The translations under genes and the position numbers were made by a program. From positions 68,910 through 119,154 of the forward strand of contig CAZTQY010000002.1 of the NCBI GenBank assembly GCA_964616425.1: a stretch of DNA of 50,245 nt, in the 5' to 3' direction. The DNA comes from an uncultured Candidatus Saccharibacteria bacterium (GTDB lineage: Bacteria > Patescibacteriota > Minisyncoccia > Phycocordibacterales > DATDWN01). The notes under the pieces were generated by a model. The model saw nothing but the letters and a program-made list of their open reading frames with translations. It searched no databases and was not told the origin of the DNA. Below, in pieces: positions 24,936 to 49,682 of this stretch. How positions within the stretch are numbered: position 1 is the stretch's first letter; each line of letters starts with the position of its first letter.

Positions 24936-25769
24936 CTATAGACCATCAATCTCTTCAATTACTTTTTTAATGCTTTCACCTGTGAGCCCGATTTTTGACA
25001 ATAAATCAGGATTTTCAATAACTGTTTTACAAAGAACTATTCCTTGAGTTAGCAATTCCTTCTTTTCTCTACCATTTATACTAGCTAAACATGTAATAGG
25101 ATGTAGTTTTGATTCTAAAATCATGTCGTGGAGGTTACCGGTAGGAGGATAATTCCAGCCAATCATCCTAATTCCACCCTGACAACTTCCGTACTCAATT
25201 GCAGTTGAAGTGAACTTTGTATTTGTGACTAACCAGAACTCATCCAAGTTTCTTTCTTTACCATAATTAAATTTCATATCCTTCAGATCATCAAATCTTG
25301 CTTTTACATAGAGTATTACTTTTAAATCAGATTTTGTACCACCTTCATTATGGAACTTTGCTTCTACCATAACCAGCTCTTTGTTATTCCAGGCGACAAC
25401 ATCAACTTCGTGCGCTACACATGAGCCATTTACCATTTGACCAGTCTTAGCCTCAAAACCTTTTTCTTTAAAAATTTCAGCAACATAGTCTTCAAAAGCA
25501 AAACCAGATGGCCCAAGCTCCATAATCGCTCTTTTAAGTGAGTACTTAATTGCTATAGGGCTTTCTTCCTTATGTAAAAGTTCAAAAACGTGTCTATATA
25601 TGTTGTGAGTTGTGATATCTTGTTTTAGATGACCATAAACATGGTTTATGATATCTCTAGTTGCTTTTGTAGATGCACCTGCACGTTTCAGAGAAGACTC
25701 AAGTTTCTTTTCATCAAATGGTTCTTTTGTTCCGTCCGCTTTTAAAACATAAATTGGTTCTGTAGTCAT
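24936..25769 (-). CDS. ATP-cone domain fused to a PD-(D/E)xK (restriction-endonuclease-like) domain
   Basis: The N-terminal 90 aa, V.K.DG..E.F...KL..SL..AG, resemble an ATP-cone. Later, HEVDVVAW...LVMVEAKFH fits the D...ExK nuclease motif. Confidence 0.65.
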   Translation of the reverse strand: MTTEPIYVLKADGTKEPFDEKKLESSLKRAGASTKATRDIINHVYGHLKQDITTHNIYRHVFELLHKEESPIAIKYSLKRAIMELGPSGFAFEDYVAEIFKEKGFEAKTGQMVNGSCVAHEVDVVAWNNKELVMVEAKFHNEGGTKSDLKVILYVKARFDDLKDMKFNYGKERNLDEFWLVTNTKFTSTAIEYGSCQGGIRMIGWNYPPTGNLHDMILESKLHPITCLASINGREKKELLTQGIVLCKTVIENPDLLSKIGLTGESIKKVIEEIDGL

Positions 25770-27120: not shown

Positions 27121-28119
27121 TCATTTATTGAGATACAACTCTTTATTGCGCTTATGCTGTTCAAATGTAGTCGCGTAGTACATGTTGCCACTTTTACTAG
27201 ATAAGAAATATAGATATTTTGACTCAATTGGATTTATGGCTGAGCTTATAGCATCAAGTCCAGGGTTGCTTATCGGCCCAGCAGGCAAACCTTTAAACTT
27301 ATAGGTATTATATGGTGAGTTAATTTTAAGATCTTCTGCAGTCAATTCATAAGTAGTTTTTCCATTTATATACAGAAAAGTAGAATCAACTTGGAGTGGC
27401 ATACCCATTTCCAACCTCTTCCACAATATTCCAGCAACCATTCTTCTGCTTTCAGTTGTTCTAGCTTCTTCTTCCAATATTGATGCCATTATAATTATTT
27501 CATCAACAGTGTGCTCTGATTTCTCTAAATCTAAAACTTTTTTAATTTGATTTTTGAAATTGTTTGTCATTGTCTCAACAACAACCTCAGGTTTAACTGT
27601 TGGCGATAAAAAATATGTGTCTGGAAAAAGATATCCTTCCTTATCCTTTGCTAGTTCAATGAATTTTTGACTATCAAAGTTTTTTAAATTTCGTTTTAAA
27701 TACTCAGCTATCTGTAAAGAATTCCAACCTTCTGGAATAGTAGCTTTAAAGTTAAGCGTATGGAATTTACCTTGTGTTATTCTATAGGCCAAATCAAGCG
27801 GACCTTCTTTTTTATCTAACAAATAATCTCCTGCAATTAGTTTTTTTTCACCTCCCAAAAAACTGACAGCCAGACGAAACATGAACGGTGATCTTATTAC
27901 ATTTGATTCTTTCAGGTTCAATGCAACCCCTTGAAGCGTGTCTCCTGAGTATATAGTGACAATCTGACCTAATGGAAAATCATTAGATGGTAAATAAGCA
28001 AACAAACCTAATAAGCTAGCGGATAATGCAAAAACAACAATATATATTGTTAGTTTCAGTTTTGAAGATAAATCTATTATCCCTCGAAATAATTCTGAAA
28101 TTTTTTGAAAATAGTTCAT
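27121..28119 (-). CDS. mltG: Endolytic murein transglycosylase MltG (YceG family)
   Basis: N-terminal TM anchor, then EEEA...GILWKRL, NTYKFKGLPAGPISNPG and YLYFLS... Confidence 0.85.
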   Translation of the reverse strand: MNYFQKISELFRGIIDLSSKLKLTIYIVVFALSASLLGLFAYLPSNDFPLGQIVTIYSGDTLQGVALNLKESNVIRSPFMFRLAVSFLGGEKKLIAGDYLLDKKEGPLDLAYRITQGKFHTLNFKATIPEGWNSLQIAEYLKRNLKNFDSQKFIELAKDKEGYLFPDTYFLSPTVKPEVVVETMTNNFKNQIKKVLDLEKSEHTVDEIIIMASILEEEARTTESRRMVAGILWKRLEMGMPLQVDSTFLYINGKTTYELTAEDLKINSPYNTYKFKGLPAGPISNPGLDAISSAINPIESKYLYFLSSKSGNMYYATTFEQHKRNKELYLNK

Positions 28120-39626: not shown

Positions 39627-42575
39627 TTATTTTTTATCCCACTGATAAAGCAGAATTGAAAAATCAACTGAATCAACTTTTCCATCTTTGTTTATATCAA
39701 CTCTAGTATTTTTAAATGGAGGAGATGTTTTCCAGAATGCGAGCAAAATTGAGAAATCTACAGAGTTTACTTTTCCATCTTGATTAAAATCTGAAGTTTT
39801 TATTGCGCCAGTTACAACTGTAGCTAAAGAGTTGTTTGTGGAAGCTATTGGTGCACCTCCACCACCTCCACCGCCTCCTCCACCACCACCTGAAGTTCCA
39901 CCTCCAGTACTACTACCCGCAACTGCTGTAAAACTTCTAGAAGCTCCTGAACTTTCAGTACCGAAATACACTACTGACTTAAAGTAGTAACTACCTGGGG
40001 TAGGAACTGTCGCAGTTAGAGTTGTATTAAAATCTTCACCAGGATTTATAAATTTAGCTGCTGAACCGTAATAAACATCATTTCCTCCACCACAGGCGTT
40101 ATTTTGAGAACTCACAACACACCATTCATAGTGGTATTCATAACCAGTGAGACCTTCATTAGTGATAGTTAAATTTGCTGCAATATCAGGAACCACTAAC
40201 GGACTGACACTGTTGATTATTACTTGAGCAGGAGAACCTGTTACATCCCAATAATCATTTGTTTGGATTGTCTGACCACTTTGAACTTCAACATTTACGA
40301 CTGATTCCCACGCTCCTTGTGCTGCATTTGAAGCTACAGAGTATGTGTATTCATATACTCCAGTAGATATATTTGTCATACTGACATTCGATACAACAAC
40401 ATTTCTACTTGAATCATAAATTGTTATTGCTGGAGCTGCAAAAGGATTAGTATCTTGTCCTGAATTACTTACATATATCTTTGCTCTATAGGTATTGCCT
40501 TCAAGAATTGTTTCGGTATTTGAAAGTCTTACTGACCATGGTCCAGAGATTACTGAAATGGCTGAAGTTAATGAAGAATTCAATGAAGTAGTAGCTGTTG
40601 TTACAACGGCATTTGTATTTGAATTAATTTGTGATGTCACAGAACTTGAAGCATTTTGAACATCAGAGAGTGTCGCCAATGATCCAGTATCTAATGTTCC
40701 ACTAGTTAAAGTTCTATTATTAAAGTTCCAAATATCTGACACTGTTAACGAACCTCCGCCGATAGTTGAAGACTGAGAGTCTAGATTTATTGCGATTTGA
40801 TTACCAATTGAACCCAGAGTAGTCAAAGTAGTTGTTGAAACACCCCAAATATCAGCCACAAGTGTTCCAAATGTTGTCAGAGATCGTGAACCATATGCCC
40901 ACACATTAGCTGGGACAGACAATATTGAACTAGCTAGTTGAGATACGATAGATGATGAGGCTGTGGCAACTATGCTGTTTGTGTTGGCATTAATATTTGC
41001 AGCAAGTGATGTTGATGCGTTTAGGATGGCGCTATCTGTATTTGAGTTAACTGCTGATGTGATTCCGGATGTTGCAGAGTTTGTGTTCGCGTTAACTACA
41101 GCAGCAAGTGAAGATGTTGCTGTTTGAACATCAGATAATGTAGCTAGAGAACCTGTATCTAAGCTTGAACCAGTTAGAGTACGAGTAACTGAACTCCAGA
41201 CGTCAGTTGCTAGAGTACCGAAGGATGTGAGTGTTCGGCTACCTGATGACCAAACATTAGCTGGAATCGATGTGATTGATGATAATATCTGAGAAACAAT
41301 AGATGAAGAAGCGTTAGCTATTGATGAATCAGTATTTGCACCAACAACTGCGACAATAGACGTTGAAGCTGTATTTAATGCTGTATCAGTGTGACTATTT
41401 ACAGAAGAAGTAATTCCGCTTGTCGCTGAGTTTGTATTTGAATTAATTTGTGATGTCACAGAACTTGATGCATTTTGAACGTCAGAGAGTGTGGCTAGAG
41501 AGCCTGTATCTAGACCAGAGCCGGTAAGTGTTCTTGTAACAGAACTCCAAACATCTGTAGCCAGTGTTCCAAATGTTGTCAGAGATCGTGAACCATATGC
41601 CCACACATTAGCTGGGACAGACAATATTGAACTAGCTAGTTGAGATACGATAGATGATGAGGCTGTGGCAACTATGCTGTTTGTGTTGGCATTAATATTT
41701 GCAGCAAGTGATGTTGATGCGTTTAGGATGGCGCTATCTGTATTTGAGTTAACTGCTGATGTGATTCCGGATGTTGCAGAGTTTGTGTTCGCGTTAACTA
41801 CAGCAGCAAGTGAAGATGTTGCTGTTTGAACATCAGATAATGTAGCTAGAGAACCTGTATCTAAGCTTGAACCAGTTAGAGTACGAGTAACTGAACTCCA
41901 GACGTCAGTTGCTAATGTGCCGAAGGATGTGAGTGAACGAGTTCCAGCTGTCCAAATATCAGAAACCAAAGTTCCAAATGATGTTAATGTCCTACCAGAA
42001 TAACCCCAAAGGAGTGACGGTAACAACGTAACTATAGAGGATGATGCATTTTCAATCGAAGTATTCAAGCTAGATATACTAGTGTTTGCAGAAGAAATAG
42101 GAGCATCTAGATTTGAATTTATCTGTTGACCAACAGTTCCACTGTTATTTATTGTAGAAGTTGCAACATTCCAAACTGCAGCAGCAACTGTGGTGGTTGA
42201 TACAGACGAAGTAACAATAAAAGTTTTGTCTTGTTTTATCAAATCAACTCCTGCAGTACCACAAGACATATATGCCGGCCAAGTACCTTCTATAGGTGAA
42301 GGCGTAAAGGAATAATAGTGCCAACCGTCAGCATCAGCACTCATTGTCACTGCGTTGACTACTGTGGAGCCACTAGGATCTTTAACTGTTACCTCGCAAT
42401 CATCAGTTGAAGCAGTAAAATCATCATTATACAAATATTCCCCAAGTGTAACTGTAAAATTTGGGGCATACTGCTGATATTCAGCAAATAAATGTAATGG
42501 TATCAACAAAAGACCAAATATTAAAAATTTTACAGTCAACCCAAAAATTTTTTTACGGTCTTTTTCGATCTCCAT
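39627..42575 (-). CDS. Large secreted S/T/A/N-rich repeat protein with two beta-sandwich-like domains, a poly-Gly linker and a C-terminal type-I-like dockerin
   Basis: Sec-type signal. About five RxLT(S/T)FGTLxxDxW ... LDTGSLATLSDVQ modules. GGGTSGGGGGGGGGGG linker. Duplicated calcium-loop segments DFNQDGKVNSVDFSILL and DINKDGKVDSVDFSILL. Confidence 0.75.
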   Translation of the reverse strand: MEIEKDRKKIFGLTVKFLIFGLLLIPLHLFAEYQQYAPNFTVTLGEYLYNDDFTASTDDCEVTVKDPSGSTVVNAVTMSADADGWHYYSFTPSPIEGTWPAYMSCGTAGVDLIKQDKTFIVTSSVSTTTVAAAVWNVATSTINNSGTVGQQINSNLDAPISSANTSISSLNTSIENASSSIVTLLPSLLWGYSGRTLTSFGTLVSDIWTAGTRSLTSFGTLATDVWSSVTRTLTGSSLDTGSLATLSDVQTATSSLAAVVNANTNSATSGITSAVNSNTDSAILNASTSLAANINANTNSIVATASSSIVSQLASSILSVPANVWAYGSRSLTTFGTLATDVWSSVTRTLTGSGLDTGSLATLSDVQNASSSVTSQINSNTNSATSGITSSVNSHTDTALNTASTSIVAVVGANTDSSIANASSSIVSQILSSITSIPANVWSSGSRTLTSFGTLATDVWSSVTRTLTGSSLDTGSLATLSDVQTATSSLAAVVNANTNSATSGITSAVNSNTDSAILNASTSLAANINANTNSIVATASSSIVSQLASSILSVPANVWAYGSRSLTTFGTLVADIWGVSTTTLTTLGSIGNQIAINLDSQSSTIGGGSLTVSDIWNFNNRTLTSGTLDTGSLATLSDVQNASSSVTSQINSNTNAVVTTATTSLNSSLTSAISVISGPWSVRLSNTETILEGNTYRAKIYVSNSGQDTNPFAAPAITIYDSSRNVVVSNVSMTNISTGVYEYTYSVASNAAQGAWESVVNVEVQSGQTIQTNDYWDVTGSPAQVIINSVSPLVVPDIAANLTITNEGLTGYEYHYEWCVVSSQNNACGGGNDVYYGSAAKFINPGEDFNTTLTATVPTPGSYYFKSVVYFGTESSGASRSFTAVAGSSTGGGTSGGGGGGGGGGGGAPIASTNNSLATVVTGAIKTSDFNQDGKVNSVDFSILLAFWKTSPPFKNTRVDINKDGKVDSVDFSILLYQWDKK
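40861..41914. repeat. Two identical 352-bp direct repeats (40861-41212 and 41563-41914) offset by 702 bp (234 codons) inside the dockerin-protein gene
   Basis: I compared the two copies base by base in the listing. They first differ at 41213 versus 41915 and at 40860 versus 41562. More diverged copies of the same module flank them, for example 40618 versus 41437. Confidence 0.9.
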
Positions 42576-42609: not shown

Positions 42610-42759
42610 CTATTTCTTTATATCATCCTTAAATGCACCCCTAAGCTGTCGTATTGCATCAGCAACACCTTTTGTTAACTCTGGAATTTTCTTTGCGCCA
42701 AACAAAAAAACAATCAACACTGCGATTATTATTATTTCTTTTGTTCCTAAATCAAACAT
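42610..42759 (-). CDS. tatA: Sec-independent translocase subunit TatA/E, 49 aa (not in the ORF track)
   Basis: My own translation: MFDLGTKEIIIIAVLIVFLFGAKKIPELTKGVADAIRQLRGAFKDDIKK. It has an N-terminal TM helix, the FG hinge and an amphipathic helix typical of TatA. Confidence 0.8.
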   Translation of the reverse strand: MFDLGTKEIIIIAVLIVFLFGAKKIPELTKGVADAIRQLRGAFKDDIKK

Positions 42760-42782: not shown

Positions 42783-42962
42783 TTACTTCTTCTTAGTGTT
42801 CACACCACTATTTTCGTCTTGAGAATCATCACTAAATGCTTTTCGTAGATTTCTTATCCCCTCGGCAATACCCTTTGTTAACTCAGGAATTTTCTTTGAA
42901 CCAAACAGGAGCACAATCACCGCTGCAATTATTATTATTTCTTTTGTTCCAAGTCCAAACAT
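42783..42962 (-). CDS. tatA: Sec-independent translocase subunit TatA/E paralog, 59 aa (not in the ORF track)
   Basis: My own translation: MFGLGTKEIIIIAAVIVLLFGSKKIPELTKGIAEGIRNLRKAFSDDSQDENSGVNTKKK. Confidence 0.8.
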   Translation of the reverse strand: MFGLGTKEIIIIAAVIVLLFGSKKIPELTKGIAEGIRNLRKAFSDDSQDENSGVNTKKK

Positions 42963-42986: not shown

Positions 42987-43721
42987 TTATACTGCTTTAA
43001 CGGATAAGCGCTCTTTGCTATATGAGTTTACTAAAATTGTTAACTCATATATTGCAACTAATGGTAGCGACATTACCACTAATGATAAACCATCAGTTGG
43101 TGGAAGTAAAGAAACGAATACAAATATAGCAACAACTGCTTGACGACGTTTTGATTTTAAGAAATCTACATTCAAAATGTTCATTTTAATCATAAAAGTT
43201 ATAACTATTGGGAACTGAAATATCACTCCGAGCAAAGCAGATGTTAAAACCATTTGTGATATAAACCTGCTAATATCCCAAAGATTTACAACGCCAAGGG
43301 ACACATTTACTTTAGCTATTATTTTTAGAGCAAAATACAAAGTTGCAAAGCCATATGAGAACCCTGTAATAAAAAGTAAGAGTCCAACAGGTAACAATTT
43401 AATAAAAAATTTCTTTTCATTAGACAAAAGGCCAGAACTTAAAAAAGAGTAAACTTGAAATACCAAAACTGGTAATGTAACAATTATTGCTGAAAACACA
43501 CCAATACTCATAGCCAAATCTACAATTTGAAATGGAGAGGTTGTTGTTATCACTACATCTTCAATTTTTAAAAATCTAATAAAAAACTTCAAAAATGGTG
43601 TAGTGAAGAAAAAACCAACACAAAAAACAATAATAAATAATATTACTAGCCTATATAATCTCATTCTTACATCTTCTAGATACTCTCCGTATTCAGTAAC
43701 GTATCTTTTTAATTCATCCAT
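42987..43721 (-). CDS. tatC: Sec-independent translocase subunit TatC
   Basis: 244 aa, six TM segments, an N-terminal ...YLEDVRMRLYRLV motif, and adjacency to two tatA genes. Confidence 0.8.
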   Translation of the reverse strand: MDELKRYVTEYGEYLEDVRMRLYRLVILFIIVFCVGFFFTTPFLKFFIRFLKIEDVVITTTSPFQIVDLAMSIGVFSAIIVTLPVLVFQVYSFLSSGLLSNEKKFFIKLLPVGLLLFITGFSYGFATLYFALKIIAKVNVSLGVVNLWDISRFISQMVLTSALLGVIFQFPIVITFMIKMNILNVDFLKSKRRQAVVAIFVFVSLLPPTDGLSLVVMSLPLVAIYELTILVNSYSKERLSVKAV

Positions 43722-43726
43722 AAAGG

Positions 43727-43912
43727 TTACTCAGACATTATGAAAATATTTGATCCACCACCGGTGACTTGCGGGATTTCTAATATAAGATTCTGACAAC
43801 CACTTGATTCAACTAAAATATCATCAAAACCACCCGTATATACAACACTTGGTAGTTCTACTAGGAAATCCTGACCTTCACCTGATTGGAAACAAATATC
43901 TTTAAATGCCAT
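43727..43912 (-). CDS. Hypothetical small protein, 61 aa
   Basis: Tightly packed in the operon, with 5-nt gaps on both sides. I recognised no family. Confidence 0.4.
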   Translation of the reverse strand: MAFKDICFQSGEGQDFLVELPSVVYTGGFDDILVESSGCQNLILEIPQVTGGGSNIFIMSE

Positions 43913-43916
43913 AAAT

Positions 43917-44588
43917 TTATACTATTTTTCTAGAAGGTTTGTTAGTTAGCATACTTATTGGCTTATCCAGTAGCACTTCTTCTGCGGGGACAACCTCTGG
44001 TACCGCAATATTTTCAGGTATAACCTCAGGAGCAACTGGTTCAATTGGGGTTTCACCTACTGGTGTTTCTTCTACCGGCAACTCTTCTACAGGAGGCTCT
44101 TCTACTGGAACTTCTTCAGGTGTTTCCTCCACCGGAACTTCTTCTTCCACCATAGGAACCTCTTCCTCAACCGAAGTTTCTTCAACAGGAGTCTCTTCTT
44201 CGGCAGGAACCTCTTCTACAGGAGATTCCATCTGACCTTCAGTCTTAGCCTGCTCATCGCTTATTACTTGGTCGAGAGATGTAGGTTCGAGAGAACCTTC
44301 ATCCATCTGAGAAAGTAATTCATTTGTCATACGAACATATGAGGCAGCCGTATGAGTTGACTCTGCGTCTATTTTTAATATTTCTTCCCCTAATTCTTTC
44401 GCGCTATTAAAACGATACACCATACCCCCATATTTTATGTATTGCGCTGCAAATGAACCTGCAACAATATCAGGATTATCTATATTACAGAACTCGATCA
44501 ACACATTGTCAGCATAATCCCCAGTGGCAGTAACCACTTTTAAATTTTCATTATCTGCAACACCTTGACCTTGTTCAATGTGAATCAT
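43917..44588 (-). CDS. Hypothetical protein with a globular N-terminal domain and an acidic Pro/Glu/Val repeat tail
   Basis: The C-terminal 90 aa consist of (E/P)VPVEE(T/P)-type repeats encoded at about 43990-44225. No signal peptide. Confidence 0.5.
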   Translation of the reverse strand: MIHIEQGQGVADNENLKVVTATGDYADNVLIEFCNIDNPDIVAGSFAAQYIKYGGMVYRFNSAKELGEEILKIDAESTHTAASYVRMTNELLSQMDEGSLEPTSLDQVISDEQAKTEGQMESPVEEVPAEEETPVEETSVEEEVPMVEEEVPVEETPEEVPVEEPPVEELPVEETPVGETPIEPVAPEVIPENIAVPEVVPAEEVLLDKPISMLTNKPSRKIV

Positions 44589-44591
44589 AAA

Positions 44592-47252
44592 TTAATATTG
44601 TATAAGCAACGCTCTAACTTTAATATCATCACCTATGTCTGTAGTTGTATATCTTATGTAAGTTGTTTCGTTAGTTTTGTCTAGAAAATCATATGTGTCC
44701 CAAGTAGATCCATCATCAGTAGACTTTTCGAATGTTCCATATGAATGGTTTGTAGTGTCGTCAGTCAAAAGTTCTCCATCTGTTTCTGCATTATAGAAAA
44801 TAACTTTCAATCTAGGCACAGTCGAACCAAAAGCAGTAGAGAATCTCCAAGCAAATATCTTGCTTGTTATCGAAGAATGCGCGACAGATGGCTGATAGTG
44901 ACTATCTGTTGTATTGTCTTCATAAGTACAACATATATTATATACACGATCAGGTAGACACAAAGCACCTATAACTCTAAATTCAATAGCAAACTGAACT
45001 TCATCTCCAGCTAACGCACTTGAGATATTCCCAGTCTGATCTACGAGTGTCCATGTTCCAGAGTTATCACTAATACCAGATGTTCGATAATATATTCTTA
45101 TTGGCTCTGTTGGTAAAGTTAAACCCCCATCTCCCAAATACCCTGCTGTATTTACAAAAACTCTGGACAACTTCACAGCATTTGTTGTGGAAAGTGCAGG
45201 TGTTATCAAACGTTGATTTACTGAACCACCTGCATATTGCCAATCCGCACCAAGAGGTACCGCATACATGATGTTTGTAGTGGAGGCAGTACCGGTACGC
45301 ACCATATAAACTAACCCAGCTTGAGACCAGACAGACAATAGAGCCCCTTGGGGACTTGGGTGTGGCACTGAATTTGAATCCGCTGTTGATTGATCCTGTT
45401 GTGCTGTGTCAGCTAGAAACATATGATCAAATTGATAAGATCCCGAAGCATCGTATTTTGTAATATATGCTCGGTGATGTGCTGTAGTTCCTCCAGCGCC
45501 AGTAGATGTAATGATTAGTCTATCTATCTGATCTGCTATTTCCACTCCGGTCATAAGTGAAGAAGCTGTATATGTTCCAGAACCACCAGTTGGAACTTCT
45601 GTCATTGAATCTGAAACCCAAGAACTACTTCCTTGGGTAATCTGAGATGTAGGTGCTCTGTGTATACGAGTAGTTGCAGCAAAGTATAAACATTCCTCCC
45701 CTGCACCAGGTCCATGAGAAAGTGTTCCAACACGACCATTATTAGTTTGAGTTACTGTTCCAGTTACTGTCTGAGTAGCAGTAGTTAATACCCAAGCAGA
45801 TGCAGCCTTACCAGCCTCTACTCCACCCAATGTACTTAAATCTGCTCTAAAATTATATTTATAAACTTGAGGGGTGGTTGCCGCTTGAAGCTCAATTATA
45901 TAAGCATACTGTGATGTCCAGCTTGTACGATCACCTAAAGCCAAACCACAAGAAATACCATTACCTCCAACAATCACATAAGCAGATCCTCCTGGCACAG
46001 TAGTTGCAGATGAAATAGTTATACCTGTAGTAGATCCGACAGCGGTAATTGTAAACCATTCAGTAATAGCCAGTGGGTTGGTAGAGCCGAAACCAATCAT
46101 ACAACCTAGGTGCGTAGCTGCAGCCCAAGAAGTACCAGCACCAGTTACAGCAGTAGTTCCAGGCACAGTTACCGTACCTGTAGAATATACTAAATCCAAA
46201 TCAACCAAACTATAAACAGCCTTAGCCTTATCAACAGTTGTTGCTGCTGCAATAGTGGTTCCACCAACAACAAAGTCATCATAAGAAACTCCATTTACCA
46301 TTGATAAGCCTCCTGCGGCAATTACGACGGATGTTGTAGACGTTAATATTTTTAAATCTTCAATAACATACGCCGTACTTGAAGCGACTGTAATATTTGC
46401 AGCAGTACCTCCAGTACCACTAGCAGTAATATTTGCTTGAATTGTTATTGAAGTATCAGAAGATACAGCGTTTACATAATACCAAGTTGATATTTGTGTA
46501 GGATCAGAACTGCCAAAACCGATACGAGAACCAATTGCTATACGATCTGAGGACCATGTAGTACCAGAACCAGTAACTGTGGCACCAGAAACTCCAACTG
46601 TACCAGTTGTATATTTATCGTACACAGCTCGCATGCCTCTTATAGTTTGGTTACCACCTCCAGTTGGATAAGTGATAGTAATAAATCCTCTCCAAGTAAA
46701 CAAAGATGTCATTCTGTCGTACAAAAAACAAGATATACGTCGAGTTGCAGCTGCTGTTGCAAGATCTGCTAAAAATACCCAATCCTTTTTAACTTCTTTG
46801 TCAATAATAAATGATGTACCACCAGCAATTGTCCCAGCAGAAACTGAAATTGACAAAGAAGTATCAGAAGAAATAGAGCTTATAGAGTACCAGGTAGTAA
46901 TATCTGCTTTACTTGTTGAACCAAAACCAATGCGTGCTCCGATTGGCACACCATCAGCAAGCCATCCTGTACCGCTACCAGTAACAGATGTAGAGGAAAC
47001 GCTGACAGTACCTGTAGTATAAAAACCTTCTTTGTTTACCCAAGAAATAACGTGAGGGTAAGTAGAGGGAATTGCCGTACCAGTTTCGTTCGGACGACCA
47101 ACTCCTATTTTTGCCGGTCCAGCAAAATTATCAGTGACGCCTGCCCCACTATATTGTTCAATCAAATCCCCCATTGTTGTTAAAGAAGGATCATACGCAT
47201 CATAATGTGTAGTAACTCCTGAAAAAATATGTTCTATTGCCCTTTTTGCCAT
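44592..47252 (-). CDS. Large T/S/G/A-rich protein with a threefold roughly 58-aa repeat and no signal peptide (hypothetical)
   Basis: 886 aa. The repeats are Y(T/S)TGTVxVxxxxVTGxGTxW...IGxxIGFGSxxxxxIxxW(Y/F)xIxxVxSxTxIxI at aa 78-136, 214-271 and 356-414 (nt 46011-47021). Confidence 0.6.
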   Translation of the reverse strand: MAKRAIEHIFSGVTTHYDAYDPSLTTMGDLIEQYSGAGVTDNFAGPAKIGVGRPNETGTAIPSTYPHVISWVNKEGFYTTGTVSVSSTSVTGSGTGWLADGVPIGARIGFGSTSKADITTWYSISSISSDTSLSISVSAGTIAGGTSFIIDKEVKKDWVFLADLATAAATRRISCFLYDRMTSLFTWRGFITITYPTGGGNQTIRGMRAVYDKYTTGTVGVSGATVTGSGTTWSSDRIAIGSRIGFGSSDPTQISTWYYVNAVSSDTSITIQANITASGTGGTAANITVASSTAYVIEDLKILTSTTSVVIAAGGLSMVNGVSYDDFVVGGTTIAAATTVDKAKAVYSLVDLDLVYSTGTVTVPGTTAVTGAGTSWAAATHLGCMIGFGSTNPLAITEWFTITAVGSTTGITISSATTVPGGSAYVIVGGNGISCGLALGDRTSWTSQYAYIIELQAATTPQVYKYNFRADLSTLGGVEAGKAASAWVLTTATQTVTGTVTQTNNGRVGTLSHGPGAGEECLYFAATTRIHRAPTSQITQGSSSWVSDSMTEVPTGGSGTYTASSLMTGVEIADQIDRLIITSTGAGGTTAHHRAYITKYDASGSYQFDHMFLADTAQQDQSTADSNSVPHPSPQGALLSVWSQAGLVYMVRTGTASTTNIMYAVPLGADWQYAGGSVNQRLITPALSTTNAVKLSRVFVNTAGYLGDGGLTLPTEPIRIYYRTSGISDNSGTWTLVDQTGNISSALAGDEVQFAIEFRVIGALCLPDRVYNICCTYEDNTTDSHYQPSVAHSSITSKIFAWRFSTAFGSTVPRLKVIFYNAETDGELLTDDTTNHSYGTFEKSTDDGSTWDTYDFLDKTNETTYIRYTTTDIGDDIKVRALLIQY

Positions 47253-47261
47253 TTGTTAAAA

Positions 47262-47888
47262 TTAAATTTCTAAATAATCAATATTAATTTGTACTGTAGT
47301 TGTTCCTGATATCACACAGTATAGCACCTCATCGACTCCACCTTCAATATAATTTGGATGATTGTTAGCACCATACAATCCTCCAGTCTTTGGTGAGACA
47401 TATTTTTCATGATCTGTGCCTCCAGATGTAAATCGAAATGAAACTGAAGTTGCATCTGCAGTTAAAGAAAACCTATTTGCATACACCCGAATTTTTTTTC
47501 CAGAAGATGGAGTAAGAACGTTGCCAGAAGATGCCAGACTTGTAGAAAGTTTTGTGACACCTTGACCAGATATGAGAGAAGCCAGAGTTTCCTCTGTAGC
47601 AGGACTAACTCTTGTATTAGAAGCATTTTTAAGACCTACAACATTAGATGTTGGAGCGTTACCTAGGACGTAAGCTTCTGTTTTCTTTGGTAAAACTTGA
47701 GAAGCAACAATACCCAAACCAGTAATTCCGGCAATTTTTAAAAATAACCTCTTATGGTTATCTACAGATTCTTTCTTGACTCTAACTTTTTTATTTGCAA
47801 TATTTGCCTTTTTATTTTCAAAAGCAAAATCGCCTAATTTTTTATTAGATACAAACCTAAAAGAATATTTAGTTGGTAAAATTTTCAT
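47262..47888 (-). CDS. Hypothetical exported or anchored protein with a Tat-like KRLFLK signal and a beta-rich C-terminal domain
   Basis: A Lys-rich 45-aa N-region is followed by KRLFLK-IAGITGLGIVASQVL-PKKTEA (nt 47673-47753). It is the first gene of the operon that also contains tatC and tatA. Confidence 0.5.
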   Translation of the reverse strand: MKILPTKYSFRFVSNKKLGDFAFENKKANIANKKVRVKKESVDNHKRLFLKIAGITGLGIVASQVLPKKTEAYVLGNAPTSNVVGLKNASNTRVSPATEETLASLISGQGVTKLSTSLASSGNVLTPSSGKKIRVYANRFSLTADATSVSFRFTSGGTDHEKYVSPKTGGLYGANNHPNYIEGGVDEVLYCVISGTTTVQINIDYLEI

Positions 47889-48803: not shown

Positions 48804-48860
48804 ATTTTGTTTAATTTTATTTACCTCTTTAATATACTATATGCTATAATTTACTCAAAT

Positions 48861-49682
48861 ATGGCAGTAAAGGGTAAAAATAACAGGATGAAACTAAAGT
48901 ACACCGCAGGATTGTTGGCTTTATCAGCAACAAGCCTCGTAGTGATGATGTTCTACTATCATCTAGACTTTTCCCTACTAACATCACTCTCTTTTTATGA
49001 AAACTTGGCTAACCCCTCCGTTAGAATAGTTAGAATCCAAGAAGGTCTAAGAAAAGAACAAATAGCAGATATCTTTGGAGAAAAGTTGGGTTGGAGTGAT
49101 TGGAAAAAAGAAGAATTCATAAATGGGCATTTAGCTTTAAATAGTGAAGACCTAGAGGGTAGATACTTCCCAAAAACATACTTGGTCCAAAAAAATGAAG
49201 ACCCTATAGGCGTCACATCTACTATGCTCCATGAATTTACTAAAGAAACAGCAACAATCAAGAAACCGAAAGCTAGTTTAGTTCTAAATCAAGACACAGC
49301 AATAAAAATAGCTTCTATTATTCAAAGAGAGTCTGGTGGAAAAAGTGATATGAAATTGATTTCTGGCATTATATGGAATAGGCTTTTTGCTGGAATGAGA
49401 CTCCAAATAGATGCTACTTTGCAATACGCAAAAGGATCAGAGGAAGATGGATGGTGGACACGTGTGGATTCTGAAGATAAACGCATAGATTCTACATACA
49501 ACACATACAAATACTCAGGACTTCCACCAACAGCAATTTCAAATCCTGGCTTAGCCGCCCTAGATGCTGCGTATAACCCTCAAAAAACTTCTTGTCTTTT
49601 CTACCTTCACGATAAACACGGAAAAATACACTGTTCTGCAACTTACGAAGGACACAAAGCAAACATTAAAAAATATTTATAA
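48861..49682 (+). CDS. mltG: MltG/YceG-family endolytic transglycosylase, second paralog
   Basis: ASIIQRESG, GIIWNRL, NTYKYSGLPPTAISNPG and LFYLHD motifs. I chose the ATG at 48861 because a TATAAT (48845-48850) lies inside the TTG-started extension used by the ORF track. Confidence 0.8.
   Translation: MAVKGKNNRMKLKYTAGLLALSATSLVVMMFYYHLDFSLLTSLSFYENLANPSVRIVRIQEGLRKEQIADIFGEKLGWSDWKKEEFINGHLALNSEDLEGRYFPKTYLVQKNEDPIGVTSTMLHEFTKETATIKKPKASLVLNQDTAIKIASIIQRESGGKSDMKLISGIIWNRLFAGMRLQIDATLQYAKGSEEDGWWTRVDSEDKRIDSTYNTYKYSGLPPTAISNPGLAALDAAYNPQKTSCLFYLHDKHGKIHCSATYEGHKANIKKYL

Follow-up and report, generated by a model that had tools for sequence, protein, structure and literature searches.

A Phage-Derived Gene Cassette Coupled to the Twin-Arginine Translocase Operon in Patescibacteria

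Introduction

Proteins that lack a signal peptide of their own can cross a membrane via the twin-arginine translocation (Tat) system as hitch-hikers, i.e., bound to a partner that carries the signal. In Escherichia coli, HybC and DmsB are signal-less and are Tat-exported when bound to the signal-bearing subunit. Here, we describe a gene cassette, A-B-C-D, which is found together with the translocase genes tatC and tatA in a 50,245-nucleotide stretch (referred to below as the window) of the genome of an uncultured Candidatus Saccharibacteria bacterium (contig CAZTQY010000002.1, positions 68,910 to 119,154). The cassette resembles the HybO/HybC and DmsA/DmsB systems in that a small signal-bearing protein (A) is encoded adjacent to a large signal-less one (B, 886 residues), together with accessory proteins, and export of a folded complex is the logical route that we propose. 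It differs from these systems in that the putative cargo is phage-derived, is not a redox enzyme and has no evident cofactor, in that the translocase genes reside within the operon, and in that the signal mostly carries a Lys-Arg (K-R) pair.

A second group of related systems is that of phage tail fibers and tailspikes, exemplified by the families phrog_1591 and phrog_1980 of the PHROGs database, the depolymerases Depo32 (7VYV) and RAD2 (7LZJ) and the F2-pyocin side fiber. A module of about 75 residues in B aligns over its full length with the N-terminal domain of these proteins, relatives of B are encoded in tail-fiber regions, and domains of the predicted fold of B may resemble the propeller of phage endosialidases. 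In contrast to phage fibers, the module is internal in B and is found in one to five copies in its family, while the remaining scaffold is found neither in PHROGs nor in cultured phages. Furthermore, the bacterial copies of B are chromosomal, highly conserved and linked to tat genes.

Two further systems share individual traits with the cassette. The Tat-fimbriae (tafi) structure of Haloarcula hispanica is formed from TafA, TafC and TafE, each with its own twin-arginine (R-R) signal, and the cluster encodes a dedicated signal peptidase (PMC11821415). The cassette would be similar to tafi if it, too, gives rise to a Tat-dependent surface structure from a small cluster of hypothetical proteins, but tafi is archaeal, is not phage-derived and displays no sequence relationship to the cassette, where the signal is found on A alone. 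In tailocins (pyocins) and gene transfer agents, as in the cassette, phage virion genes were captured, fixed and conserved for a cellular function. However, these systems retain whole tails or particles that are released by lysis, whereas the cassette holds the fiber region alone and is coupled to protein export.

None of these four systems joins a phage-derived cassette to a Tat operon, and no description of the cassette was found in the literature. If hitch-hiking holds, the cassette would be, to our knowledge, the first known case of phage virion proteins that were domesticated and Tat-exported, and Tat hitch-hiking would extend beyond redox enzymes. In Patescibacteria (ultra-small bacteria, also named the candidate phyla radiation, CPR), the building of the cell surface and the recognition of hosts are largely unexplained, as is the retention of Tat by these reduced, mostly non-respiring cells. 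The cassette may offer one concrete answer to both puzzles, i.e., a highly conserved putative Tat substrate, A, tied genetically to the translocase and to a large folded protein of phage origin.

Results

The genes of the cassette are co-directional with the translocase genes on the reverse strand, in the order A, B, C, D, tatC, tatA, tatA, and are separated by gaps of 3-24 nucleotides (nt) from A to the second tatA. A scan for promoters and terminators yielded matches at chance level. Gene B (44592..47252) starts 9 nt after its upstream neighbor, at the first start codon that follows an in-frame stop, so that no upstream extension is possible. The protein is rich in Thr, Gly, Ser and Ala, its Kyte-Doolittle (KD) score over 19 residues peaks at 1.36, and a hydrophobic N-terminus is lacking in B and in all of 106 homologs. 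The initial annotation had described an 886-residue open reading frame (ORF) with a threefold motif and no export signal, encoded between a Tat-signal protein and tatC. These points are borne out by the translation and the homologs, with the addition that two small genes, C and D, also lie between B and tatC.

Gene A (47262..47888) encodes 208 residues, for which an alignment of homologs and an AlphaFold2 (AF2) model delineate a Tat-type signal peptide at residues 1-72 (nt 47673-47888). The signal is composed of a long n-region, the motif D-N-H-K-R-L-F-L-K, a Gly/Ala-rich h-region, a basic c-region and the residues PKKTEA, after which a likely cleavage site is found. Within the motif, D-x-x-(K/R)-R-x-F-L-K, 44 homologs show no variation at residues D43, R47, F49 and K51, while in a set of 64 proteins the first basic position is occupied by K in 52 and by R in 11. 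The motif resides where the n-region meets the h-region and corresponds there to the Tat consensus S/T-R-R-x-F-L-K. The h-region, IAGITGLGIVASQVLP, has a KD score of 1.76, to be compared with 2.1-2.6 for the membrane segments of TatA and TatC. In the cleavage region, PKK-TEA/AEA followed by Y or L is conserved, and an A-x-A site is present. A is the sole protein of the window in which a Tat-type motif is followed by a hydrophobic segment.

The mature part of A, about 136 residues, is extremely conserved and contains a 'VVGxK..RxxPATEETL' segment and an 8-strand beta-sandwich. In the AF2 model, which is poor (predicted local distance difference test, pLDDT, 58.8), residues 43-65 form a helix and the strands span residues 111-207. 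The A family comprises 575 members. A search of the Protein Data Bank (PDB) with a profile of A gave just a chance-level match to EscJ. Weak jelly-roll matches of the model (E ~1e-2), i.e., a nucleoplasmin-like fold, a phage cement protein, Ena pilins and CBM6, were not used for classification. Within the n-region (residues 1-42, nt 47763-47888) a conserved 'KYSF(K/R)L(V/I)S' motif is found well upstream of the Tat motif.

Neither C nor D has a targeting signal. Gene C (43917..44588; 223 residues) encodes a conserved N-terminal domain of about 100 residues, a linker of about 100 residues that is rich in Glu, Val and Pro and has a net charge of -42, and a short basic tail; the linker is Thr-rich in one of the five homologs that were read. 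Gene D (43727..43912) encodes an acidic protein of 61 residues with a conserved C-terminus, NIFIMSE, and its homologs are acidic proteins of 57-62 residues that end with IFIMSE. The downstream genes are tatC (42987..43721; PF00902, E 6e-39) and two copies of tatA, of which the first (42783..42962; 59 residues) matches TIGR01411 above the curated cutoff (E 1.2e-15) and the second (42610..42759; 49 residues) matches the same model with 46.3 bits, below the 53.9-bit cutoff (E 2.2e-12). Related loci harbor one to four copies of tatA.

To survey the linkage of the cassette to tat genes, profiles of its four proteins and of TatC and TatA were run against 78 non-redundant loci, which comprise the window, three loci fetched around homologs among the matches listed, and 74 loci taken from the genomes of GTDB species. 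Counts refer to the 47 loci in which B is flanked on either side by 3 kb or more of sequence. Among these, D is found in all 47, A, tatC and tatA in 46 each, and C in 44. The tatC gene is located at most 3 kb from B in 45 of the 47 loci. The tat genes are found downstream, upstream or in divergent orientation, and the sole exception to the linkage is an Armatimonadota locus. The arrangement expected of a hitch-hiker, a signal-less candidate cargo encoded adjacent to a signal-bearing partner, is found in these loci, with A in 46/47. The mean identity to the window proteins is 77% for mature A, 64% for B, 64% for TatA, 58% for D, 53% for the N-terminal domain of C and 49% for TatC. The values for mature A and B exceed that for TatC, which indicates that the putative cargo genes are under stronger constraint than the translocase core.

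The same linkage is seen from the side of the translocase. Of 80 metagenome loci fetched by TatC, 23 include 5 kb or more of the sequence that precedes tatC. An adjacent A-B-C-D cassette is located there in 14 of these loci and a second type of cassette in seven; one locus (L170) harbors a third variant with two tandem A-type genes, and in one (L191) B-C-D is found 8.6 kb away. An adjacent cassette that opens with an A-type Tat-signal gene is therefore found in 22 of the 23. The survey of homologs for co-occurrence with tatC, which the initial annotation had suggested, thus supports the linkage in both directions. It becomes apparent that the A-B-C-D cassette of these Patescibacteria is chromosomal, strongly conserved and nearly inseparable from tatC and tatA.

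The second cassette (e.g., L184:5409-9961, with tatC at L184:9998-10729; also L175, L180, L187, L196, L202 and L207) opens with a protein of 250-304 residues, referred to as A', which has the Tat signal of A and two copies of a VVGxK..INPATEE(S/T)L segment, and lacks the beta-sandwich. It is followed by a signal-less protein of 949 residues with 'TDTTKxWxVNQWxGxxVxI..GTGxGQ' repeats and by a 300-residue protein, the N-terminal part of which reads as peptidoglycan-hydrolase-like and the tail of which is rich in Pro, Thr and Val. The cassette closes with tatC and two or three tatA genes. The 949-residue protein was considered as a divergent B and rejected, as hhalign detected no relation. Hence, one signal-bearing N-terminus is combined with two different large signal-less proteins, as an adaptor-plus-cargo scheme predicts.

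The repeated motif of B consists of YxTGTV (residues 78, 214 and 356), VTGxGTxW (90, 226 and 369) and IGFGS (108, 244 and 386), each found three times. The structure model and the alignment of homologs place complete modules of about 77-88 residues around these motifs, so that the modules are located where they had been annotated and are longer than the approximately 58 residues assigned to them at first. Module 1 (residues 76-152; 46797..47027) is a phage tail-fiber 'anchor'-type domain, delineated by a phrog_1591 match to residues 77-151. Module 2 (residues 212-299; 46356..46619) is present in every family member, including the phage versions. Module 3 (residues 354-429; 45966..46193) is an insertion specific to the subclade to which B belongs, with proteins of 883-889 residues, and its columns are missing from homologs of about 800 residues. 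In pairwise BLASTP with composition adjustment, module 1 is 56% identical to module 2 (E 2e-21) and 45% identical to module 3 (E 2e-14). The remaining C-terminal scaffold (residues 430-886; 44592..45965) is predicted to be propeller-like with a beta-sandwich, from the AF2 model and fold search.

A likeness of the module to N-terminal repeats of some phage fiber or appendage proteins had been noted in the initial annotation, and it was substantiated by profile searches. Compared with PHROGs, the whole of B matches phrog_1591, 'tail fiber protein', in three stretches (E 1.1e-15). Among 15 modules, 13 match phrog_1591 and 12 match phrog_1980, with further matches to families 24092, 24607 and 2712, and all these matches fall on the first ~75 residues of the tail-fiber families. 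In the PDB, positions 3-75 of the 77 in the module profile align end to end with the N-termini (residues 4-75) of two Klebsiella phage depolymerases, 7VYV/7VZ3 and 7LZJ (E ~0.007). In the Depo32 paper, this stretch of the depolymerase is named an anchor domain, N-terminal and conserved among KP36-like depolymerases. Weaker matches of the profile were obtained to the side fiber of the F2-pyocin and to a distal tail protein. A Pfam scan of the B modules gave nothing meaningful. In fibers, the anchor is single and found at the extreme N-terminus, where it docks the fiber to the virion, whereas the modules of B are multiple and internal.

B had also been described as an orphan, a view that did not survive, as a word-index search identified more than 1068 homologs at E<=1e-3, with more than 1000 in Patescibacteria. 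Among the matches listed, the closest are 39 full-length homologs with 71-84% identity, and the best matches are from metagenome-assembled genomes named Pacebacteria, Parcubacteria or Patescibacteria. In an exhaustive profile search the family amounts to 560 clusters at 50% identity, of which 253 are found at E<=1e-30, and the commonest size is about 710 residues. The threefold layout holds for B itself and is not a trait of the family, where the number of modules varies from one to five, one being the commonest and three defining one subclade. Protein length follows the number of modules: one module is found in proteins of ~705-740 residues, two in ~797-819, three in ~876-903, four in ~942-978 and five in one of 1072. 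Length thus grows by about 80 residues per module, and B is therefore composed of a constant all-beta scaffold of ~630 residues that carries one to five copies of an anchor-type domain of ~77 residues.

The proposal that small domains are inserted into a larger beta scaffold is supported by these steps and by the structure model (an alignment of 52 sequences; pLDDT 81.8, predicted template-modeling score 0.78), which is all-beta and yields propeller matches, with insertion blade by blade as a conjecture. Residues of module 2 are among the most conserved positions of the entire family, and conservation reaches 95% or more at G217, T218, R243-G247, D250, P251, W257 and Y258 in 167 bacterial and viral sequences. 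Conservation is even along the whole length of B, where no hypervariable patch was found. Searches with the B model against BFVD gave uncharacterized Caudovirales proteins as the best matches (Foldseek, E 1e-12), followed by tail proteins, the K1E tailspike and a Leptospira phage tail fiber.

Several variants of B were observed within the family. In three proteins of about 892-903 residues (P0105, P0110 and P0118; e.g., L006:5177-7888) an extra module is nested in the first beta-hairpin of module 2, i.e., the domain is inserted into a copy of itself. The homolog at L052 has five modules, four of which are in tandem. In one subclade, three tandem B paralogs are located between one A and one C-D pair, at L046, L053, L065, L069, L071-L075, L080 and L081 (nine among the 47 loci counted above); these paralogs are composed of about 880, 808 and 944 residues with three, two and four modules, respectively, which hints at a hetero-oligomer. 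At L055 (L055:3349-5898), a single ORF of 849 residues matches both B (query residues 1-697) and the N-terminal domain of C; this ORF could be either a true fusion of the two genes or an artefact of assembly or a frameshift.

The phage relatives of B were identified in a scan of IMG/VR, where 133 viral contigs, with a GC content of 0.26 to 0.71, encode full-length relatives with 33-46% identity over residues 1-885. With these contigs and the ~560 clusters at 50% identity, the present work defines a large family. Viral contexts were counted for the best 80 of the 133 loci, of which 56 are non-redundant. In the latter, the genes that flank B belong mainly to tail fiber, tail, virion structural and collagen-like minor tail PHROGs. 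For example, B at L135 has collagen-like fiber genes on one side and, on the other, an apparent lysis block (holin, transglycosylase, spanin-like). At L103, L109 and L118 an A-like protein that lacks a signal peptide is encoded directly upstream of the viral B. C-like small proteins adjoin B in 24 and D-like proteins are found downstream in 10 of the 56 loci.

Neither tatC nor tatA was found in any of the 80 viral loci. The phage relatives thus lack both tat genes and a Tat signal, and the Tat coupling is therefore a bacterial addition. A match to a known phage structural family had been named by the initial annotation as a result that would speak against its Tat proposal; such a match was obtained, and it does not refute the proposal. 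With tblastn, neither B nor viral B matched any of 50,697 cultured-phage records. These data show that B is one member of a large phage virion-module family, with relatives in a phage structural context. This family, which is missing from Pfam, from PHROGs (the module excepted) and from cultured phages, is newly defined here.

Outside Patescibacteria, B homologs were observed at three loci that harbor neither A nor tat genes, i.e., on an Armatimonadota chromosome (L068:9938-14262) and on contigs with a GC content of 0.59 (L082:1-14753) and 0.40 (L083:8001-21766). B is either single or present as 2-4 tandem paralogs at these loci, and an HNH endonuclease gene is found near all three. At L068, B is located beside the HNH endonuclease and a minor tail protein, and at L082 beside a 2822-residue protein with DUF2793 and tail-fiber repeats; thus, tail-fiber or minor-tail genes adjoin B at both loci. 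At L083, four tandem copies of B, one of which is fused to PKD and BNR_2 domains (1935 residues), are followed by a D-like gene and the HNH endonuclease; a D-like gene follows B also at L068. Proteins of about 160 residues encoded downstream of B-D at L068 and L083 were considered as A homologs and rejected; they are not homologous to each other either.

Discussion

Our preferred reading, to which we assign a probability of roughly 45%, is that the cassette is a captured phage fiber region in which A gained a Tat signal and B is exported in folded form by hitch-hiking. Phage ancestry and the linkage to tat genes are shown by the loci compared, whereas an exported B and the role given to it are what we propose on this basis. 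The cassette A-B-C-D would descend from a tail-fiber or virion-structural module of uncultivated phages, and would have become fixed as a chromosomal operon with tatC and tatA in one group of Patescibacteria. A and B, possibly aided by C and D, would adopt their folds and bind each other while still in the cytoplasm, something that their phage ancestors have to do as well. The translocase would then recognize the signal peptide of A, with which the signal-less B would cross the membrane, and A would be cleaved after the A-x-A site. The complex would presumably remain on or near the cell surface, where it may bind carbohydrates or cells and possibly cleave glycans, in the service of host-dependent bacteria.

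Several observations weigh against hitch-hiking export. That B leaves the cytoplasm and that A binds B are both steps that we infer. The K-R pair, which is found in most A proteins in place of R-R, is a known natural variant of the Tat motif that is tolerated in some substrates and is often weaker. At the loci with three B paralogs the cargo would be very large for Tat if all three travel together. The AF2 model of A is of low confidence, and the scaffold of B is found in no PHROG and no cultured-phage record. The neighbor-joining tree of 167 B proteins is star-like, and the Tat-linked copies do not form a single clade; therefore, we make no claim on the number or direction of captures. Finally, the even conservation of B is unlike that of a host-specific adhesin or receptor-binding protein.

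The main rival is that A is the sole Tat substrate, while B, C and D remain in the cytoplasm, B serving there, e.g., as a scaffold or binding protein, and the synteny is the inherited phage order A-B-C-D. This alternative accounts readily for the lack of a targeting signal in B, C and D and for the order A-B-(C/D) already seen in a few phage loci without Tat genes, and it avoids the problem of cargo size posed by the three B paralogs. However, phage virion proteins with fiber-anchor modules and Asp-box hairpins work outside cells, and the second cassette pairs an A-type signal with another large protein, which inherited order alone explains poorly. Furthermore, conservation is highest in mature A, and this suggests that it fits tightly to a partner. 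On balance, we regard export of A alone as unlikely.

In an extension of the hitch-hiking reading, which we consider rather unlikely in this full form, the Tat system of this Patescibacteria lineage would mainly serve to export a domesticated phage virion module. Here, A or A' would be the adaptor, carrying the signal and a shared docking segment, and interchangeable large signal-less beta-proteins (B or the unrelated 949-residue protein) would be the cargo. Jointly they would form a structure by which these episymbionts recognize or hold other cells.

A different function of an exported B is that of an enzyme, i.e., a polysaccharide depolymerase or sialidase-like glycosidase derived from a phage tailspike. 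In a Foldseek search of the PDB, the B model matched best to the endosialidases of phages K1F and phi92 (E 5e-6, probability 1.0), with beta-propellers further down, such as integrin alpha, WD40 proteins, DPP4 and the bacterial sialidase NanA. B has two Asp-box-like hairpins (SDNSGTW, residues 728-734; STDDGSTW, residues 844-851, nt 44700-44723), in the second of which G848 and W851 are conserved throughout the family, as are eight polar residues (R469, N505, H513, R529, E552, D577, R723 and D858). The even conservation fits an enzyme better than a variable adhesin, and the anchor-type module is common to capsule depolymerases. Yet, the TM-scores of the PDB matches are just 0.20-0.26 at a root-mean-square deviation of about 26 Å, so that the likeness to endosialidases and propellers is at the level of domains. 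In addition, B has no match in Pfam, NCBIfam or PDB sequences, thus none to BNR/sialidase families or to any glycosidase, and the profile of B gave just a marginal match to a Sema propeller in the PDB (E 0.8). An enzymatic B appears quite improbable.

It is less probable still, and in our view very unlikely, that the exported complex is a shield or decoy against phages, in which a captured receptor-binding module masks or occupies the phage receptor of the producing cell itself. The phage ancestry of the cassette and the fiber-anchor module would fit such a role, as would its fixation in a lineage that may itself be infected by phages with B relatives (identity to the nearest viral matches, 44-46%). 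However, this scenario is purely inferential, no known defense genes were noted beside the cassette (the PADLOC library was not searched), and even, strong conservation is atypical of a component in an arms race.

A prophage remnant or a locus for a phage-tail-like particle, next to which tatC would be found by coincidence, would be consistent with the frequency of B relatives on viral contigs and with the HNH endonuclease and tail genes at the three loci outside Patescibacteria, but is rejected as effectively excluded by the linkage statistics (tatC within 3 kb in 45/47 bacterial loci, tatC or tatA in 0/80 viral loci) and by the context, i.e., varied housekeeping genes that flank the cassette, no phage hallmark among eight window neighbors searched against PHROGs or 30 window proteins searched against Pfam, and a conservation that exceeds that of TatC.

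Two further models were considered and not adopted. An S-layer protein is disfavored by the lack of a secretion signal and of a Pfam anchoring domain (SLH, CWB2) in B and C, although a role in forming a lattice is conceivable, and a tafi-like pilus by the presence of the signal on A alone and the lack of a signal peptidase gene in the cassette.

Neighboring Genes

The window is part of a low-GC (~0.35) chromosome and harbors ftsW, murG, gltX, dnaK/J, rpoA, alaS, leuS, ychF and a DUF5671 gene. Directly downstream of the tatA genes, a 982-residue protein is encoded (39627-42575, reverse strand) that carries a membrane anchor or signal at its N-terminus and a dockerin at its C-terminus. Other parts of the protein are an MG2 domain, a Gly run and tandem repeats of 351 nt (117 residues), the alternate copies of which are 98% identical. 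This gene is not kept beside the cassette in other loci. Two YceG/MltG-like genes are located at 27121-28119 (reverse strand) and 48807-49682 (forward strand). Finally, the protein encoded at 24936-25769 (reverse strand) has three parts, namely an ATP-cone, a restriction endonuclease domain of the Mrr type and, at the C-terminus, an AF1548-like domain.

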